From Chloroflexota bacterium (GTDB lineage Bacteria; Chloroflexota; Chloroflexia; QHBQ01), in assembly GCA_043754535.1 (NCBI GenBank), contig JAYUUN010000083.1, positions 1-32,638 of the forward strand: a DNA stretch of 32,638 nucleotides, written 5' to 3'. Shown here piece after piece: positions 3,035 through 32,232 of the stretch (its first letter is position 1; each line of letters opens with the position of its first letter). Below the pieces are notes generated by a model. That model did not search any database, was not told where the DNA came from, and was given only the letters and a program-made list of their open reading frames with translations. The translations under genes and the position numbers were made by a program.

Positions 3035-3964
3035 TTGAAGCAATTGGATATCAAGGAAAATAGAGGGCTGGCTGCCTGGGTGCGGCGCAGGCCAGGGGTG
3101 CAGGCAGCAGGGTTGCTGCTGCCGGGGCTGATTGCCTTTGGCCTTTTCTTCGTCATCCCCCTGTTGATCGTGGTTGGAGTCAGCTTCACGGCCAAGAAGG
3201 CGGGGACGGTTGACTGGACGCACTGGACCCTGAACAACTATGTCAGCCTGGTGACGAACTTCGCGGGCGACTTCGACCCACTCTACCTCAACATCTTCCT
3301 CCGCTCGCTCTGGTTCGCCTTGCTAACCACAGTGATCTGCCTGCTGGTTGGTTACCCACTGGCCTACTTCATCGCCCGCCGCGGCGAAAAGTGGCGCGCC
3401 GCCCTGATCTTGCTGATCATGATCCCCTTCTGGACTAACTTCCTGGTGCGAACTTACGCCCTGCAACTGATTTTCCGCAAAGAAGGGCTACTCAACAGTC
3501 TGCTGCTGGACGGCCACATCATTAAGCAACCGCTGGACATGATGTTTACCCCTGGGCTGGTGCTGTTCGGCCTGGTCTACGGCTACCTGCCCTTCATGGT
3601 ACTACCGCTCTACGCCAGCATTGAGAAGTTCGACTTCAGCCTGCTGGAAGCAGCCCAAGACCTCGGTGCGGGGACGTTCCGCACCCTGCGTAAGGTACTA
3701 CTGCCCCTCACCATGCCAGGGGTGGTCGCGGGTAGCATCCTGGTCTTCATCCCAGTAGTTGGCAGCTATGTGACTAGCGACCTGCTGGGCGCGCAGTCCA
3801 GTGGCACACTGATGGTCGGTAACACGATTGAGAACCAGTTCCTCAAGTCGCAGAACTGGCCGCTCGGCTCGGCAATGTCGCTGGTGCTGATGGCGGTGGT
3901 ACTGCTGGCAATCATCATCTACTTCCGCGTGGCGCGGGGTGACAAGAAGGGGGCAGCACTTTGA
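3035..3964 (+). CDS. potB: Spermidine/putrescine ABC transporter permease
   Basis: IPFWTNFLVRTYA, YLPFMVLPLYAS, EAA motif LLEAAQDLGA. Confidence 0.88.
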   Translation: MKQLDIKENRGLAAWVRRRPGVQAAGLLLPGLIAFGLFFVIPLLIVVGVSFTAKKAGTVDWTHWTLNNYVSLVTNFAGDFDPLYLNIFLRSLWFALLTTVICLLVGYPLAYFIARRGEKWRAALILLIMIPFWTNFLVRTYALQLIFRKEGLLNSLLLDGHIIKQPLDMMFTPGLVLFGLVYGYLPFMVLPLYASIEKFDFSLLEAAQDLGAGTFRTLRKVLLPLTMPGVVAGSILVFIPVVGSYVTSDLLGAQSSGTLMVGNTIENQFLKSQNWPLGSAMSLVLMAVVLLAIIIYFRVARGDKKGAAL

Positions 3965-4887
3965 GCGCAATCAATTACAACGATAAGCCAGGCCAGATGA
4001 ACGCCGCGATTGTGGCGAAGGAGCAGGTAGCAGGTCATGCTCAGGCAGGCAGTGGGGCGCAAGCTATCAGCCGTCCCCCCGCGCGCCTCGCCCTACCCGC
4101 CTGGTTGGGCAACCTGCTACTCAAGAGCAACGCCCTGGTTGTTTTCCTCGTCCTCTACCTGCCAGTGGTGATCCTGATCGTCTTCAGCTTCAACGCCGCC
4201 CGCAGCGGGGTAAACTGGACTGGCTTCAGCCTGGACTGGTACAACAAGTTGCTGCACGACGGCAACATCGGCTCGGCGGCGATCAAGACGCTGATCGTGG
4301 CTGGCTTTGCCACCGCGATCTCGACGATCATCGGCACTATGACTGCCCTCGCGTTGGAGCGGCACAAGTTTGTGGGCAAGGTGGTGTTCGAGGGAGTGAT
4401 GTACCTGCCGATCATCATCCCAGAGATCGTGATGGGCCTATCGCTGCTGCTGTTCTTCCGTGCTGTCGGCGTAGACCTGAGCCTGGTGACGGTGATCATC
4501 GCCCACGTCGTCTTCTGCATCCCCTTCGTCGCAGTGATCGTGCGGGCGCGCCTGGCCGACTTCGACCGCCGCCTGGAGGAGGCTGCCATGGACCTGGGGG
4601 CCGACGAGCTAGCCACCTTCCGCAAGGTGACGCTACCGCTGCTGATGCCCGCGATCATCGGAGGGGCGGTGATGGCCTTCACCCTCTCAATTGACGACGT
4701 GATAGTAACCCAGTTCACCGCTGGGGTTGGCTCGACCACCCTGCCGCTCTACATCTACTCGCAGGTGCGCGTGGGGATCACCCCTGTAATCAACGCCCTC
4801 TCGACAATCATGCTAGTCGCCAGCATCGGCCTGGTGCTAACCTCGCTGTTTCTTCAGCGTGACCCAGCGGGCAAGAAGGTGAAGTAA
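3961..4887 (+). CDS. potC: Spermidine/putrescine ABC transporter permease
   Basis: FSFN..WTGFSLDWY, LEEAAMDLGA, FTLSIDD, TTLPLYIYS. TTGA start/stop overlap with potB. Confidence 0.88.
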   Translation: MSAINYNDKPGQMNAAIVAKEQVAGHAQAGSGAQAISRPPARLALPAWLGNLLLKSNALVVFLVLYLPVVILIVFSFNAARSGVNWTGFSLDWYNKLLHDGNIGSAAIKTLIVAGFATAISTIIGTMTALALERHKFVGKVVFEGVMYLPIIIPEIVMGLSLLLFFRAVGVDLSLVTVIIAHVVFCIPFVAVIVRARLADFDRRLEEAAMDLGADELATFRKVTLPLLMPAIIGGAVMAFTLSIDDVIVTQFTAGVGSTTLPLYIYSQVRVGITPVINALSTIMLVASIGLVLTSLFLQRDPAGKKVK

Positions 4888-26847: not shown

Positions 26848-28263
26848 TTGAAGCGCACTAATCCCTTCGTCGCCCTCATCTTTGCCGCCCTGCTGCTGAT
26901 TGGCTGCGGCGATGGCACGACTGTCCCGCCGACTGCTACCCTGCCAGCCGCCACCGCCACTAGCCTAGCCAGCCCGCCCACTGCCACGCTGGCTGCCAGC
27001 CTGCCTAGTGCTACCCCCGCCCAGGTGAGTCAGCTTGCCACTGTCACCAGCCCGCCAGCCGCTACGTCCACACCTGAGCAGCCAACTGCCAATCCACCCA
27101 CTGCGCCAACCGCCACCAACCCACCCGCCGTCAACCCCGACGTGCTAACCGCCGAGGCGCAGCCCACCTTCGCTCCGACCGAGGCCGCCACCCGCGCCCC
27201 AATCAGCACGGCGGTAGCATCCGAAGCTGCACTTTCGCCGACCGCCGCACCTTTCGCTACCCAGCCGCAGCCGACCGCCGCCGAGATCGTCACCCCCGCC
27301 AACCAGCGCATCGCGCTGATCTACGATGGTAGGCTGGCAACGGTCAACGCCGACGGCAGCGGCCTCAAGCTGTTGACTGGCATAGGAGCCAGCAACCCAC
27401 GCTGGTCCCCCGACCACTTGCGCATCGCCTTCGCCTTCGCTGAGGGGAAGGACGCGCGCCTGCACATCATCAAGGCGGACGGTAGCGGCGACCTGGGCAT
27501 TGCCGACTCTGGGGGTAACGACGCTAACCCGGCCTGGTCACCCGACAGCAGCACGGTGGCCTTCGAGGTGCGCAATGCCGACCGCAGCCAGATCGCGCTG
27601 GTAGACAGGGCTGGCGGCCAGCTACGCCTCATCGCCGACGGCCAGCAACCAACCTGGCGCAGCGACGGGCAGGTGATCGGCTTCGTCACCTATGGGCTGG
27701 CTGGCGACAGTAGCAACAGCCTGCGCCTGACCAGCGCGCAGGGCAAGAACGAGTGGCAGCCGCTGGCCTACAGCAGCGTGCCGCAAGACCTCTCTGCCTA
27801 TAACTACCCCTTCAGCCCTGGCACTACCAGCCTCGGCAACCCCCAGTACAGCGCGAGTGGCCGCATCGCTCTCGCCGCCCGGGGCCACAGCGGGCTGGTC
27901 CTGAGCGTGAATGGGCAGGGCCAAGACTTGCAGGTGCTGGGCTTTAGCTACGAAGGTGGCATTGGCGCGCTGGATTGGTCACCAAGCAGCAGCTACCTGG
28001 CCTATGAGAACCAGGGCGCAAGCGGCATCACCACTGTCAACATTGTGGACAGCAGCAAAGCGGTGGACGCGAACAGTACGCCGCTAGCCAGCTTCGGTTC
28101 GCCGCAAAACAGCAGCGGCTACCGTGACCCCGCCTGGTCGCCGAGCGGCAAGCAGCTTGCCCTGGTCGCGCTGGACGGGGAACGCAGCAGCGGCCTCGCC
28201 ATTAGCGACCTTAGCAGCCCTCGCCTGGTTCTCAAAGGCAACGTGACGGAGATAGATTGGTGA
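26848..28263 (+). CDS. Lipoprotein with P/T/A-rich linker and TolB-like (PD40) beta-propeller
   Basis: Lipobox LIGC, then a low-complexity linker and repeated P.WSPD/WSPS motifs. AGGAGG RBS precedes TTG 26848. Confidence 0.82.
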   Translation: MKRTNPFVALIFAALLLIGCGDGTTVPPTATLPAATATSLASPPTATLAASLPSATPAQVSQLATVTSPPAATSTPEQPTANPPTAPTATNPPAVNPDVLTAEAQPTFAPTEAATRAPISTAVASEAALSPTAAPFATQPQPTAAEIVTPANQRIALIYDGRLATVNADGSGLKLLTGIGASNPRWSPDHLRIAFAFAEGKDARLHIIKADGSGDLGIADSGGNDANPAWSPDSSTVAFEVRNADRSQIALVDRAGGQLRLIADGQQPTWRSDGQVIGFVTYGLAGDSSNSLRLTSAQGKNEWQPLAYSSVPQDLSAYNYPFSPGTTSLGNPQYSASGRIALAARGHSGLVLSVNGQGQDLQVLGFSYEGGIGALDWSPSSSYLAYENQGASGITTVNIVDSSKAVDANSTPLASFGSPQNSSGYRDPAWSPSGKQLALVALDGERSSGLAISDLSSPRLVLKGNVTEIDW

Positions 28264-28272
28264 GCGGGGACA

Positions 28273-28310
28273 CAAAGAGGGGCGCACTTTGCGGGTGCGC
28301 CCCTTTCTGT
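28273..28310. terminator. Bidirectional intrinsic terminator
   Basis: AGGGGCGCAC / GTGCGCCCCT stem with T-rich tails on both strands, between convergent genes. Confidence 0.75.
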
Positions 28311-28313
28311 TGC

Positions 28314-29987
28314 TCAAGTTGTTAAGCTGACCACCGCCTCATCCTCAGCGGCTGCGTCCGTCTGCGGGGCCGCCTCCACATCGAAGCCGCGCACGAAGTC
28401 GGCCATCACGTTCGGGGTGGCGGTGTCGAAGCCAACCACGTCAAGCATCCCCCCGTCGTCAGGGTCAGCGATGCTGAAGCCGTTGGAGGTCATGCCCACC
28501 ACGATCAGCTTGGCCGGGATAGCCATCTTCTGGCGGTACTGCTGCAAGGCCTGGACAGGATGCACATCCCCCACCCAGGTCTCCGAGTCGGTGTAGATGG
28601 TGAACACGTCCACCTTCAGCTTCTTCTCCATTGCGTAGAGCATCGGCTGGGCGCAATCGGTCGAGCCGAACGGCAGGTCACTGATCGCCTTGATCGCATC
28701 GTCGAGACGCTGGCGGGGCGAGATGGTTAGTGGAAGCAGCTTGTTCTGGAAGCCAACCACATGGTACCGAGCTTCAGTGGCCGCCGTGACCAGGCACATT
28801 GCCGCCGAGGCATCGCGGGGCGATAGGTTCGGCACGCCGCCAACGTTGCCAGCACCCATCGAGCCGGACACGTCGAGGGCCAACAGCCACCGCTTGCCGG
28901 TGCTTGCCACGTTGCCGAAGCTAAGGTAGAAGGCACTGTCGAGTGCATCCACGATCTGTGTGACTGGCTGCCAGGTGTTGCCACCGCGCACCCCCTCCCC
29001 ACTGCCGTAAGTGCGCAGAGCAGCCAGCACCGCAATCGGGTGGATGCGCGCCTTCGTCAGCCGCTCGCCATCTTGCAGCGCAGCCACCACCTTGCCCACT
29101 GCCTCTGCCCCAGGCACAAGCAGCCCAACCCGCGTCATCGTCGCCAGGTTGCGGATCAGAGCGGTCGTCGGCATCGTCCCCTCACCGAGCAGAGCCTCCC
29201 ACACTGCAACCTGGTTGAGGTACTGGGTGGGGATCGCCTCCCGCGGGAGGTTGTAGTCGTTGATCAGGCGCACGACTTCGCCGACCGAGCTAGCTCGCTT
29301 CGCCTTCTCAAAAGCCCAGAGCAGTTGCAGGGCCGCCTCTGGGTGTGGCTCATTGCCGACCCACTCCCAGCCGCCCTTGACCACCCAGTTGTAGATGTCG
29401 TTATGCTGCGGCGTAGTCGCCTTCGGGTGAGTCAGGCGCAGGAGGTCGCGGTGACTCCAGCCGTCGCGCTGCTGGTACTTGACCACCTGCAACGCTAGCT
29501 TGCGCGCAGGCTGCTGGTACCAGCGGGCGACCGCGTTTCGCAGCCCACGCCCCCAGCCCCGCATATTGCCCGCATACTGGGCGAAGTGGAACAGATGGGT
29601 GCCAGTGCGACAGACCTGCGGCACCGCATTGAGGGCCAGCTTGCGCGTAGCCTCGTCGCCAACAGTGGCAGCCACGGCCAGAGCAAAGATAGCGGGGTCG
29701 TTCTTGGGCGCACGGCCACCCTCAGAGACGGCCACGATGGTCTCTACAGCACGCTTGCCGTCGGCGGCGATGCAGGCAACCACCGCCAGTGCGTTCTCCT
29801 GCGTAAGCTGCTTCTCGCTGATGTAGTAAGTGCCGCCCTCGCTGCCCAGGATCAGGAAGCGCAGTAGCCGCTGCCAGTCGTCCACCGCGAACGAGTAGCC
29901 GCCTGCACTGTTGGCCGCCATCTCCTTGCCAGGGATCGGCTCACTCTGCGGGGTCTGCTTGGGGTTGAAGTACTTGGTAAAGTTCAT
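28314..29987 (-). CDS. rsr: Ro60 orthologue (TROVE + vWA domains)
   Basis: PQSEPIPG..NSAGGY.F..D.W.RL.RFLILGSEGGTYY, RTGTHLF, KYQQRDGWSHRDLLRL.HP, ALIRNLATM, RIHP, MIDAS DVSGSM, TDCAQPM, YTDSETW, MLDVVGFD. GGAGG RBS. Confidence 0.95.
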   Translation of the reverse strand: MNFTKYFNPKQTPQSEPIPGKEMAANSAGGYSFAVDDWQRLLRFLILGSEGGTYYISEKQLTQENALAVVACIAADGKRAVETIVAVSEGGRAPKNDPAIFALAVAATVGDEATRKLALNAVPQVCRTGTHLFHFAQYAGNMRGWGRGLRNAVARWYQQPARKLALQVVKYQQRDGWSHRDLLRLTHPKATTPQHNDIYNWVVKGGWEWVGNEPHPEAALQLLWAFEKAKRASSVGEVVRLINDYNLPREAIPTQYLNQVAVWEALLGEGTMPTTALIRNLATMTRVGLLVPGAEAVGKVVAALQDGERLTKARIHPIAVLAALRTYGSGEGVRGGNTWQPVTQIVDALDSAFYLSFGNVASTGKRWLLALDVSGSMGAGNVGGVPNLSPRDASAAMCLVTAATEARYHVVGFQNKLLPLTISPRQRLDDAIKAISDLPFGSTDCAQPMLYAMEKKLKVDVFTIYTDSETWVGDVHPVQALQQYRQKMAIPAKLIVVGMTSNGFSIADPDDGGMLDVVGFDTATPNVMADFVRGFDVEAAPQTDAAAEDEAVVSLTT

Positions 29988-30025
29988 GACGACCACCTCC
30001 CATCAGGGTGCTAAAAAGTCGGCGA

Positions 30026-30131
30026 GACGGACAAGTAGTGGGCTGGCAGTGCCTCCGCAGGCTACCCAGAAAGGGCCAGGAGTCGAACCTGAACTTCGAA
30101 TGAAGTGGTAAGCCAACCGCAGCGGCCCATC
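30026..30131 (-). ncRNA. Y RNA-like element 7 (nearest rsr); miniaturised permuted tRNA mimic
   Basis: 5' GATGGGCCG pairs with 3' CTTGTCCGTC. Contains GGCTTACC, T arm CAGGTTCGACTCCTG, short acceptor hairpin GCCC/GGGT and D-like GCCT-GCGG-AGGC. Confidence 0.7.
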
Positions 30132-30196
30132 CAATTGAGCGGGGCAGTAGCCCCCTTACGCGGCAGATTTTGGTGCTAGTTGCAGGCTAGCCAGCT

Positions 30197-30394
30197 TGGT
30201 CAGGCGGACAAGGGGCGGATCAGGGCATTGCTCGCCACGAGCATCTCAACCCTTGCGGGTCGGGCGGGACTCAACCCCCGCTGCTTACAGCTGCTCTGCC
30301 GTTGAGCTGCGCTACCTTGCGGCAACGGTGGCGAATCGAACGCCACAACCCACTGTCAAATTAGATAACCTGGTCACATCGGCCCGTCTGACCA
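30197..30394 (-). ncRNA. Y RNA-like element 6 with two tandem permuted tRNA-like modules
   Basis: TGGTCAGACGGGCCG / CTTGTCCGCCTGACCA terminal stem, GGTTATC, then two T arm - GCAA-capped acceptor - D arm series. Confidence 0.72.
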
Positions 30395-30427
30395 CGCTGG
30401 CTGCGTGCGCTAGAGAAGATCGGTTGG

Positions 30428-30558
30428 GGTAGTCGCTGTCGTCAGGTAGACTAGCTGTGTTCATGGGACGCTGGAGTTGAACCAGCGCGTCCACCTTGCG
30501 GTGGTCGCTTGCCACTGATAACCCATCAACTTCGGCCCACCTGACGACGGCGGCTGCC
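30428..30558 (-). ncRNA. Y RNA-like element 5 with long terminal stem and non-permuted tRNA-like core
   Basis: ~20-bp terminal stem, GGGCCGAAG / CTAGTCT, GGTTATC, CCACC-GCAA-GGTGG hairpin, then T arm GCTGGTTCAACTCCAGC. Confidence 0.65.
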
Positions 30559-30582
30559 GTCTTTGCTGCTTGATGCTGTAAT

Positions 30583-30771
30583 TTGCTTCCGACAAGAACC
30601 TCGCTGCAAGTTAACCACCTGCTGGCTCGCACCAGCAGGCGGGTGCATTCAACCACTCTGCCACGTCATCCCCAGCGGGCGACGGCGGGATTCGAACCCG
30701 CGAGGCTGTTCTGTGACCAGCCTACCGAAGCTAACTTTGCTGGCTAGCCAGATAAACTGCGGCACTGGCAA
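30583..30771 (-). ncRNA. Y RNA-like element 4 with class II (Ser-like) permuted tRNA mimic
   Basis: GTGCCGCAG / CTTGTCG stem, GTTTATC, long variable arm AGGCTG..CAGCCT, T arm GCGGGTTCGAATCCCGC, capped acceptor, D arm TGGCAGAGTGGTTGAATGCA. Confidence 0.68.
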
Positions 30772-30946
30772 GGTGAAGCGGACAAGTGGCGCAAATGGGA
30801 TAGCTTCCACCAGGATCGCTCCTGGCTTCTGCAAGCTGCTCTACCACTGAGCTACCTCCCCCAGGTTGGTGGTGGAGAGAGGGAATCGAACCCCCGACCA
30901 GCCGATTAAGAGTCGGTAACCCACGTACTAGCGGCCCACTTCACCT
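30771..30946 (-). ncRNA. Y RNA-like element 3 (YrlA-like) with Lys(CTT) anticodon-like loop
   Basis: AGGTGAAGTGGGCCG / CTTGTCCGCTTCACCT stem, GGTTACC, CCGA-CTCTTAA-TCGG, T arm GGGGGTTCGATTCCCTC, looped acceptor, D arm TAGCTCAGTGGTAGAGCA. Confidence 0.8.
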
Positions 30947-30982
30947 CGTCAGTACCCGATCAGTTGTAGCCTACTCTAGCCT

Positions 30983-31098
30983 AGACAGTCGGACAAGAAT
31001 CGCGCTTGACTATGCTCCCCTGCGGAGCTACACCCCCATGATGGGTGGGGGTGCGTGGACTCGAACCTGATAACCGAACGACAGCGGCCCACCTGTCT
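30983..31098 (-). ncRNA. Y RNA-like element 2 (permuted tRNA mimic with degenerate T stem)
   Basis: AGACAGGTGGGCCG / CTTGTCCGACTGTCT stem, GGTTATC, GGTTCGAGTCC, acceptor hairpin CACCCCCA/TGGGGGTG, D arm TAGCTCCGCAGGGGAGCA. Confidence 0.7.
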
Positions 31099-31118
31099 GC
31101 GCCAGAGGTAGTCAGAGG

Positions 31119-31183
31119 GGTGTGAGGGCAAGTTGTCGCTGCTGGGGCCTTGACGATAACCCAACAACTTCGGCCCTCTCACC
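31119..31183 (-). ncRNA. Y RNA-like element 1 (minimal, no tRNA module)
   Basis: GGTGAGAGGGCCGAAGTTGTTG / CGACAACTTGCCCTCACACC stem with GGTTATC. Begins at the predicted transcription start. Confidence 0.65.
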
Positions 31184-31186
31184 ACA

Positions 31187-31215
31187 ATTTTAGCTTAAAG
31201 TCGGCAAATGGTCAA
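31187..31215 (-). promoter_or_regulatory. Sigma70 promoter for the Y RNA array-rsr unit
   Basis: Minus strand TTGACC (31215-31210), 17 bp spacer, TAAAAT (31192-31187). Predicted start ~31180-31182 coincides with the 5' end of element 1. Confidence 0.7.
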
Positions 31216-31416
31216 TAGGGATGAAGGTGTATTTGTGCTACGCCCACAGCAGTAGACTGCCGCTTGCTCACTCACTTGCACAGTCATTACGTCCGAAGTG
31301 GCAAAAAGGTTGCATGATCTGCGCCATTTGTCGCAATCTGCGACCAAAGTGGCGAGTCCAGTCGCTGGTGCAACCGACCCGCTGTCTACACTGTGGCCGG
31401 GCCGCAAGTTGCAGCC

Positions 31417-32232
31417 CTACGCCCCAATCTTCCTGAACTTGTCGTAGCGGGCATCAAGCAGGCGGCGCAAGCCAGCTGGAGTGCGCCAATCATGCTGGTC
31501 AAGGGCAGCCAGGTGGCGGCTGATCGCGGCAGCGACTGTCTCTACGGTAGCGAGCGGGTCTTTGTGCGCGCCGCCTACTGGCTCGGCCAGCACCTCGTCA
31601 ACTATGCCAAATTGGAGCAGATCGGGGGCGGTGATCCGCATCCGCTCGGCGGCAATGGGGGCTTGCTTCGCATCGTTCCAAAGGATCGCGGCGGCGGCTT
31701 CGGGTGAGGCGACGCTGTAGATCGCGTTCTCCAACATCAACACGCGGTCGGCCACCCCAATCGCCAATGCGCCGCCGCTGCCCCCTTCGCCAACGACCAC
31801 TGCGACCAGGGGGATTGGCAGGCCCAGCATGGTCTGGATCGCTTCGGCAATAGCCAGGGCCATACCGCGCTCCTCCGATTGCAGGCTGGGGCTGGCTCCT
31901 GCCGTGTCGATCAGGGTGACGAGCGGGAAGCCAAACTTGGCGGCGTGCAGCATCAGCCGCTGGGCCTTACGGTATCCCTCTGGTAGCGGCATCCCAAAAT
32001 TGCGGGCGATGCTCTCCTTGGTGTCGCGCCCCTTCTGCTGACCGATGAACATCACTGCGCTGCCCGCAAAAGTACCGAGGCCGCCGATGATCGCCGGGTC
32101 GTCACCGTACATACGGTCGCCGTGCAGTTCGATAAAGTCGGGGGCCATCACCTTGATGTAGTCTAGGGTATGCGGTCGTTCGGGGTGGCGGGCCGTCTGC
32201 ACCCGCGCCCACTGCGGGCTATCGTGGCTCAA
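31417..32232 (-). CDS. accA: Acetyl-CoA carboxylase carboxyltransferase alpha subunit
   Basis: [54 protein letters not shown] overlap with accD. Confidence 0.93.

Follow-up and report, generated by a model that had tools for sequence, protein, structure and literature searches.

The stretch of DNA analysed here (the window) is a contig of 32,638 nucleotides (nt) from a Chloroflexia bacterium of soil or freshwater (GenBank JAYUUN010000083.1), in which seven small Y RNA genes stand in a row ahead of rsr, the gene for the bacterial orthologue of Ro60. Approximately 1.2 kb 5' of rsr, on the same (minus) strand, is taken up by seven RNA elements, each closed by a stem, behind a single promoter-like site. 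The elements, named E1 to E7, lie between 37 and 1197 nt upstream of the rsr start, all on the minus strand. Spacers of 0 to 65 nt separate them from one another, and 37 nt separate E7 from the rsr start codon. The features are listed below. Flanks are given as the number of positions, out of eight, at which an element's own 5' and 3' flanks pair; R1 and the descriptor are a covariance model and a motif search presented in the next section.

31187..31215, minus strand: sigma-70-type promoter-like site, TTGACC-17-TAAAAT, 10 of 12 hexamer matches
31118..31184, minus strand: E1, minimal hairpin Y RNA with handle and UGGGUUAUC internal loop, no tRNA-like domain; R1 73 bits; flanks 6/8
30983..31098, minus strand: E2, Y RNA handle, weak T arm, acceptor-like hairpin of 8 base pairs (bp), D-like hairpin; descriptor match; flanks 7/8
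30772..30945, minus strand: E3, full YrlA-type, with V hairpin, T arm, acceptor hairpin, canonical D arm and two further hairpins; flanks 8/8
30583..30771, minus strand: E4, atypical, with degenerate handle GUGCCG/CUUGUCG, T arm, 8-bp acceptor hairpin, D arm and 11-bp extra arm; abuts E3
30440..30546, minus strand: E5, Y RNA handle, GCAA-capped hairpin, T arm only; R1 19.0 bits; flanks 8/8
30198..30393, minus strand: E6, full YrlA-type, with T arm, 7-bp acceptor hairpin with GCAA loop, D arm and three further hairpins; flanks 7/8
30025..30132, minus strand: E7, small YrlA-like, with V hairpin, T arm, 4-bp acceptor hairpin and GCGG-capped D-like hairpin; descriptor match; flanks 5/8
28314..29987, minus strand: rsr (Ro60 orthologue), 557 amino acids from the ATG at 29987; TROVE and vWA_Ro60 domains
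28278..28304, minus strand: terminator-like hairpin behind rsr, 10-bp stem with 8 GC pairs, then CTTTGTGT

The identity of the downstream gene, already proposed in a preliminary description of the locus, was confirmed by the Pfam domains of its product (TROVE, E = 4.6e-49; vWA_Ro60, E = 2.2e-69) and by full-length matches to Xenopus laevis Ro60 (1yvp, E = 2.4e-138), human RO60 (9nen) and Deinococcus radiodurans Rsr (2nvo), with E values between 2.4e-138 and 1.9e-131 for the three. The open reading frame as listed (28314-29996) begins at a GTG codon at 29996. The likelier start is the ATG at 29987, which has the sequence GGGAGG 8 nt before it and from which the orthologue in a genome of the same genus (G001) aligns. 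The promoter placed at 31215-31187 in the same description is also there. It is the sole such site in the interval 28000-31500, weak when taken by itself, and transcription from it would be expected to begin at the very first bases of E1. G001 has the same two hexamers, with 4 of the 17 spacer bases changed. The terminator-like site at 28304-28278 is likewise the sole one in the interval, and none is found before rsr. One promoter-like site, a terminator only after rsr, short spacers and the D. radiodurans precedent (see below) thus make it plausible that the whole row is transcribed as one polycistronic RNA and then processed.

Handles, closing stems and inner domains of the seven elements

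Seven 5' words of the form G(G/T)GCCG on the minus strand (31176, 31090, 30937, 30765, 30538, 30385, 30128) alternate with seven 3' words resembling CTTGTCC (31132, 30997, 30786, 30596, 30454, 30212, 30035). Elements E1-E3 and E5-E7 have a handle composed of 5' GGGCCG, a CUUGYCC-like 3' strand and a GGUUAYC-type motif, together with a closing stem of their own, and minimum-energy folds close each unit by pairing of its two ends. The hexamer GKGCCG alone was discarded as a signal, being found at chance level (85 matches versus 81 expected). The composite pattern GCCG-N7-17-GKTTAYC is found 5 times in the window, always within the array and on the minus strand, where 0.51 occurrences are expected; none of 100 shuffled sequences reached 5. 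A descriptor combining both handle motifs with 4 of 4 core pairs and at least 5 of 6 flank pairs has 54 matches in the genome surveyed (3.87 Mb, 88.9% complete). The loop motif is also present in 6 of them, all in the array: E1, E2, E3, E5, E6 and E7.

The elements' own flanks pair at 6, 7, 8, 1, 8, 7 and 5 of 8 positions (E1 to E7), whereas the 42 non-cognate combinations average 4.0, and the observed sum is matched by only 2 of 5040 permutations. Cognate pairing being above non-cognate pairing, six elements have private closing stems of differing sequence. A bulged helix of the kind bound by Ro60 is formed from the paired 5' and 3' ends in six of the seven elements, E4 being the exception. 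The preliminary description had spoken of seven self-contained stem-loops, of paired handle words and of terminal stems that differ in sequence yet remain paired. All this applies to six sound elements, and the seven alternating pairs of words do exist, but E4 has a poor handle, fails the descriptor and carries UUUAUC only 4 nt behind the handle. The 5' handle of E4 lies 14 nt behind the 3' handle of E3. In E7 the loop motif reads GCUUACC, and a natural variant at 30107 turns it into GCUUAUC.

A further point of that description, that a shared handle carries different inner domains, was borne out: E1 is a hairpin, E5 has a T arm only and the other elements are tRNA-like. This is already the accepted view of Y RNAs (Chen et al. 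2014, PMC4201824). T-loop words of the form GTTC(G/A)A are found six times, in E2 to E7, and the T stems of E3 to E7, as read from the sequence, are paired at 5 of 5 positions. When the elements were compared by BLAST with the genome's own 46 tRNAs, which are dispersed and have no member in the window, T-arm-like matches preceded D-arm-like matches in E2, E3 and E4, which is the permutation of YrlA. In E2, the T-arm-like match comes before a match to positions 1-13 of tRNA-Ala. The D arm of E4 is of class II (tRNA-Ser-like) and matches tRNA-Ser positions 7-22, and a 22-nt stretch of E6 is identical to positions 9-30 of tRNA-Thr (D arm). The YrlA order of T arm, acceptor stem-loop and D arm is therefore seen by Rfam alignment in E3 and E6, by BLAST in E2, E3 and E4, and by fold in E7. 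The loop of the acceptor hairpin reads ACCA in E3 and GCUG in E4; the acceptors of E4, E6 and E7 are sealed by loops of 4-5 nt, which does not suggest cleavage. Window positions 30652-30749 and 30848-30945 display extra contig depth in four metagenome runs, caused by short contigs from other organisms with 85-95% likeness. These contigs match T-arm/D-arm stretches of E3 and E4, reflecting the tRNA-likeness of these parts.

Existing RNA models recognise some of the elements below their cut-offs. The Rfam YrlA model (RF02553, cut-off 69 bits) gives partial matches to E3 (30835-30902, 32.2 bits) and E6 (30289-30354, 21.8 bits), in both cases aligning the central part of YrlA, that is, T arm, acceptor-like hairpin and D arm. 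The check with this model proposed at the outset thus turned out negative at gathering, its best score being 32.2 of 69 bits; 14 related loci also gave no RF02553 match at gathering. The model for nematode sbRNA, a Y RNA homologue (RF01656, cut-off 38), aligns E1 end to end with 33.2 bits and scores E5 at 26.1 bits. The same model scores a bacterial Y RNA of a related locus (L054 3659-3733) at 46.9 bits, above the cut-off of 38, and would mislead automatic annotation. ARAGORN finds no tRNA or tmRNA in the window. Run with introns allowed, it makes a single call, built from the acceptor 5' strand and D arm of E3 and the T arm and acceptor 3' strand of E4 with an insert of 102 nt; a sub-threshold match to the Rfam tRNA model (RF00005, 28.3 bits, cut-off 29; 30677-30861) spans the same D arm and T arm. 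This cross-element call was rejected as a true tRNA; it is taken to have arisen from the similarity of acceptor strands, or else to be left over from the other permutation. With no Rfam score at gathering and no ARAGORN tRNA, routine annotation would leave the 1.2 kb blank.

Natural variation in the window, with 7 sites in the array and 2 in rsr, does not suffice to test for covariation. A covariance model, R1, was made from an alignment (A1) of E1 and five relatives. At E<=0.01, R1 has 59 matches in the window plus the 80 related rsr loci, none of them on the strand opposite its array. The alignment of these matches was fitted to the model and is to that extent biased in its favour; 91.9% of its cells pair, versus 75.9% after shuffling and 39-47% after sliding of the partners, and two-sided changes are seen in 12 of 16 pairs. 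The custom covariance model advocated earlier thereby reveals helix covariation in the E1-type family. R1 is suited to Y RNAs of the hairpin type and was not used to count elements because those with large inserts score poorly.

DNA of this contig is present in samples from sediment, glacier and freshwater. Contigs of four other studies each hold positions 28300-31230 in one piece, with 5-7 differences. The variable sites among them number 7 in the array and 2 in rsr, and none falls in a handle word. In G001, whose Rsr is 95% identical, E1 (91.0%), E3 (96.5%), E6 (94.8%) and E7 (97.2%) can be set against rsr third codon positions, which are 85.1% identical. The G001 locus (L021) lacks 216 nt reaching from the E4 T arm to the 3' side of the E5 T arm (window 30546-30771; columns 563-778 of alignment A2). 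The outcome is an E4/E5 hybrid with mismatched handle strands, in which E5 is not intact. The row is therefore in flux, and apparently grows and shrinks by recombination between repeated T arms, as the position of this deletion would suggest. By their look, E4 and perhaps E2 are copies that are decaying or diverging.

Related rsr loci and a tRNA-shaped form of the Y RNA unit

The rsr gene has a patchy distribution, being present in 19 of 61 related genomes (a tally that includes the unpublished G007, G012 and G015). The length of the row was put in perspective with 80 rsr loci (L038-L117) fetched with the window's protein, each comprising rsr and up to 4.5 kb on either side, from Chloroflexota, Armatimonadota, Verrucomicrobiota, Planctomycetota and other phyla. 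Copies in these relatives were counted with a regular expression for the 5' motif, the opposite strand serving as control: 252 were found upstream on the rsr strand and 13 on the opposite strand. At least 1500 nt of upstream sequence was available for 65 loci. Within 1500 nt, these hold 0 (8 loci), 1 (8), 2 (13), 3 (14), 4 (8), 5 (7), 6 (5), 7 (1) or 8 (1) copies, so that at least six are present in 7 of 65; on the opposite strand, 61 loci have no motif and 4 have one. The window scores 6 by a stricter motif pattern that differs from the one used in this census, and E4 fails both. The longest row, in another Chloroflexia locus (L039 6245-8344, minus strand), has 11 handle-plus-loop motifs in 2.1 kb on a strand converging on rsr; five of its 11 units are of the tRNA-shaped form described below.

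From this distribution the window belongs in the upper tail, where it is not alone. The rarity implied in the preliminary description did not survive the comparison. The array is long, neither exceptional nor unique, and is a new case of an already known RNA system; long rows are usual in this clade of Ro60. The published record describes shorter ones. Chen et al. 2014 (PMC4201824) collected 355 YrlA candidates in 254 bacteria and 22 phages, and their Table S1, which includes no Chloroflexi, has a maximum of four YrlA per rsr locus (Neisseria elongata, Hahella chejuensis and Chondromyces apiculatus).

ARAGORN with introns also found, in 23 of the 80 loci, a total of 44 tRNA-shaped units, all on the strand of their own array. 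They have the standard order of acceptor, D arm and T arm, some with an encoded CCA, and a handle hairpin replaces the anticodon arm. What the program takes for an intron is in each unit a sealed handle hairpin: CUUGCC, a loop of 3-8 nt, then GGGCCG ... GGUUAYC. Examples are:

L041: 3979-4102, 4124-4233, tRNA-shaped units
L043: 3704-3829, 3864-3986, 4121-4246, tRNA-shaped units
L063 (the cultured Limnoglobus roseus PX52): 2333-2454, 3806-3931, 4052-4177, tRNA-shaped units

An alignment (A4) was made of 35 of the 44, dropping four from L042 and five longer than 137 nt. Its RNAalifold consensus has a 7-bp acceptor stem joining the ends, D and T stems, and a GCC/GGC handle core. Compensatory changes affect 13 of 19 pairs among the 35 sequences. 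Covariation of the acceptor stem is strong: 5 of its 7 pairs show two-sided changes in 10-15 sequences, the outermost in 4 and the innermost in 2. The Rfam tRNA model scores these units above its cut-off as "tRNAs" of 105-154 nt. In topology, they are YrlA circularly permuted. The sealed-handle, tRNA-shaped form was not found described in the literature examined, in which no search was aimed at this form.

Large arrays of tRNA genes surround or adjoin rsr in this clade: the same 80 loci contain 603 plain ARAGORN tRNA calls on the rsr strand versus 1 on the opposite strand, and a single locus can have as many as 25. Two surveys of tRNA arrays (PMC4758250 and PMC5966550), searched by term only, have no mention of Ro60, TROVE, Rsr or Y RNA. 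A literature search pairing "tRNA array" with Ro60, Y RNA, TROVE or Rsr gave no paper containing "tRNA array". In the window, the acceptor loop of E3 resembles the junction of two tRNA-shaped units (...CUCUCC-ACCA-CCAACCU-GGGGGAG...), and the sealed-handle form may have left a relic in the sub-threshold tRNA match across E3 and E4.

A bare sealed handle hairpin (UUGCCCC, 3-4 nt, GGGGCCG) is found 31-39 nt before the rsr start in L040, L041, L044, L045, L047 and L048, and 70-73 nt before it in L042 and L043. In these relatives it lies just before the rsr ribosome-binding site, and may be a site of control by Rsr over its own translation; the window has no such hairpin. Two near-identical words (TTGCC, a spacer of about 9-10 nt, GGGCCGAGGAA), picked up by a loose search for sealed handles in genome G000 (plus strand; C99 around 13118 and C105 around 745), lack the GGUUAYC motif and are far from rsr. 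One of the related loci (L047 2859-2958) has a match to the group II intron catalytic domain (RF00029, 65.5 bits) inside the tRNA/Y RNA region upstream of rsr.

Interpretation of the array

Several features tie the array to characterised Y RNA systems. As with YrlA and YrlB of Salmonella Typhimurium (rsr-yrlBA-rtcBA; RF02553), the RNAs adjoin rsr on the same strand and form the Ro60-binding stem from their ends. The order of T arm, sealed acceptor hairpin and D arm is that of Salmonella YrlA and of the Chen set, in which a YUAY motif likewise opens the variable region, and a plain-hairpin RNA (here E1; YrlB in Salmonella) occurs beside tRNA-like ones. The window differs in having seven elements in a row upstream of rsr, as against the four at most of Table S1. 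It also differs in the RtcB/RtcR context, none being found, and in keeping both strands of the handle, as in animals, whereas the 5' strand alone is recognisable in Salmonella and Mycobacterium smegmatis (PMC4201824). The YrlA of M. smegmatis is cut by RNase P and has CCA added, so its tRNA-like head has an acceptor that can be treated as a tRNA end. The acceptor loop of E3 has an encoded ACCA immediately behind the 3' acceptor strand; E4, E6 and E7, unlike the M. smegmatis RNA, seal the acceptor with loops of 4-5 nt.

The rsr locus of D. radiodurans (Yrn1, Yrn2 and small RNAs a, b and d; PMC4201824) resembles the window in having several small RNAs upstream of rsr on one strand, in retaining both metazoan-type handle strands and in having heads with a T arm only (compare E5). 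Of the 5 small RNAs there, only 2 are counted as Y RNAs, and these are separated by a real tRNA-Asp; here, 6 of 7 elements have the handle and there is no tRNA. The polycistronic precursor, the tethering of Rsr to PNPase and the induction by ultraviolet light (UV) are established for D. radiodurans in that same text, and the corresponding transcript and function would have to be supposed for the window. Metazoan Y RNAs and nematode sbRNAs (RF01656) have in common with the window's elements the sequence GG(G/U)CCG ... CUUG(A/U/C)CC with a bulged C, followed by UGGGUUAUC. The window's elements differ in being bacterial, with mostly tRNA-like heads, and in being neither RNA polymerase III transcripts nor provided with an oligo-U tail; E1 and E5 stay under the RF01656 cut-off.

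Given the anatomy of the elements, their non-random clustering, their conservation and the covariation of the family, it is quite probable that this is a Ro60/Y RNA locus of known kind, in which one promoter drives a transcript of seven Y RNA genes and rsr that is then cut. The best reading of the sequence is that one Rsr would have six, perhaps seven, alternative Y RNA partners. Transcription from the single promoter would yield one RNA with the seven Y RNA genes followed by rsr, from which RNases would excise the small RNAs. Six of these would present the bulged helix recognised by Ro60, each closed by its private terminal stem, and each of the six should therefore dock on the outer face of the Rsr ring. 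Effector function would lie in the variable heads, namely the plain hairpin of E1, the lone T arm of E5 and the permuted tRNA-like domains, four to five in number, with their sealed acceptor stems. Heads of this kind, in characterised species, tether Rsr to other proteins or gate its cavity. The steps of this scheme have counterparts in PMC4201824: a single precursor gives rise to Yrn2, tRNA-Asp and Yrn1 in D. radiodurans; it is chiefly the 5' strand of the bulged helix that Ro60 binds; and the opposite end of the Y RNA links Ro60 to its partners, PNPase being the one in D. radiodurans and Salmonella. The genome surveyed has a gene for PNPase, a possible partner of Rsr here.

A number of results weigh against this picture. 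None of the seven elements is annotated in the window by Rfam at gathering thresholds. R1 performs poorly on the long elements (E3, 11.6 bits; E6, 8.3; E2, 5.7) and has no full match in E4 or E7. The T stem of E2 has 3 of 5 pairs, and the identity of E2 to G001 (85.2%) is no better than that of rsr third codon positions (85.1%). The flanks of E4 pair at 1 of 8 positions in register, with a 4-bp UUGC/GCAA stem at an offset only. With its 3' strand CUAGUCU, E5 has a G-A at a position that is G-U or G-C in every one of the 59 family members. The motif GNCGAAN0-1G, given by Chen et al. 2014 for the region near the 5' end of YrlA, is strictly present in 2 of the 7 elements, E1 and E5 (GCCGAAG), the same position reading GCCGAUG in E6, GCCGCU in E2, E3 and E7, and GCCGCAG in E4. 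The promoter match by itself is near chance (1 found versus 0.7 expected); its weight lies in its conservation, since shuffled sequences yield 0.7 on average. Loss of the E4/E5 junction in G001 implies that not all seven elements are indispensable. A search of the 88.9%-complete genome for RtcB, which usually shares the operon in Salmonella, did not find it, and no RNA sequencing run holding the stretch was found.

A more ambitious proposal would make the seven RNAs non-redundant adaptors on one Rsr, and the module a construct on the tRNA gene and processing pathway, existing across the order in two circular permutations. This is doubtful as things stand. If the adaptor part were true, each head (plain hairpin, T arm only, class-I-like and class-II Ser-like tRNA bodies, miniature body) would recruit a different tRNA-binding enzyme or class of RNA substrate through the shared handle. 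If the two-permutation part were true, the handle would be open and the acceptor sealed here, while in the tRNA arrays of sister lineages the handle is sealed and the acceptor open and sometimes CCA-ending. Units could then pass from one phase to the other by recombination, a shift suggested by the acceptor loop of E3 and by the junction of E3 with E4.

Alternatively, instead of being freed as small RNAs, the elements might make up a long structured leader at the 5' end of the rsr mRNA, in which the copies of the handle would capture Rsr in cis, either for feedback on rsr expression or to titrate the protein. The single promoter-like site, the lack of a terminator-like site before rsr and the 37 nt between E7 and the start codon would all fit a leader, as would the sealed handle hairpin that six relatives have 31-39 nt before rsr. 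Yet the window has no such hairpin at the ribosome-binding site, and every element has its own closing stem, like excised Y RNAs. Moreover, D. radiodurans releases its upstream Y RNAs from a polycistronic precursor by cleavage, and they build up as small RNAs (PMC4201824). A role as leader is accordingly judged unlikely, although it and the excision of Y RNAs are mutually compatible.

Decay was also considered, the row being in that case a non-functional remnant of an array of tRNA or tRNA-like genes. The large tRNA arrays beside rsr in relatives (603 calls versus 1 in the 80 loci), which have no counterpart in the window, point in this direction, as do the degenerate look of E4 and E2, the 216-nt deletion in G001 and the E3 acceptor loop that reads as a junction of two tRNA-shaped units. 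Against it, handle motif, loop motif and private closing stem are kept in 6 of 7 elements. E3, E6 and E7 have diverged less than the third codon positions of rsr, and no handle is changed across the contigs of the four other studies. Five T stems are paired at 5 of 5 positions, and acceptor hairpins are capped by the stable tetraloops GCAA and GCUG. There is consequently little to recommend a dead remnant, which is a very improbable account of the row.

The preliminary suggestion that the tRNA-like heads are decoys for anticodon nucleases or for phage or toxin factors is hardly credible: the heads do mimic the tRNA elbow (T and D arms), rsr loci of relatives sit in tRNA arrays, and phage tRNA arrays have been proposed to offset tRNA-cleaving defences, but an anticodon nuclease decoy must be rejected because no element has an anticodon arm, the stem-loop that such nucleases attack, the Ro60 handle sitting in its place, ARAGORN finds no tRNA, the arms run in T-then-D order and no defence or toxin gene adjoins the array. 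The neighbours are accA, PD40-repeat protein, RmlD and MreB-like genes, with accA-type carboxyltransferase genes upstream on the same strand and the PD40-repeat protein gene converging from downstream.

The survey of related loci indicates that the published picture of one to four Y RNAs per locus understates the rows in which they occur. Bacterial Y RNAs have been studied in three species, and standard annotation misses all seven of the elements described here. With six sound and clearly different Y RNAs in about 1.25 kb ahead of one Ro60 gene, the locus offers a convenient test bed, which could show whether differing Y RNA heads give one Ro60 differing partners. It also stands at one end of a broader range of Ro60 partner RNAs that has so far been insufficiently described.

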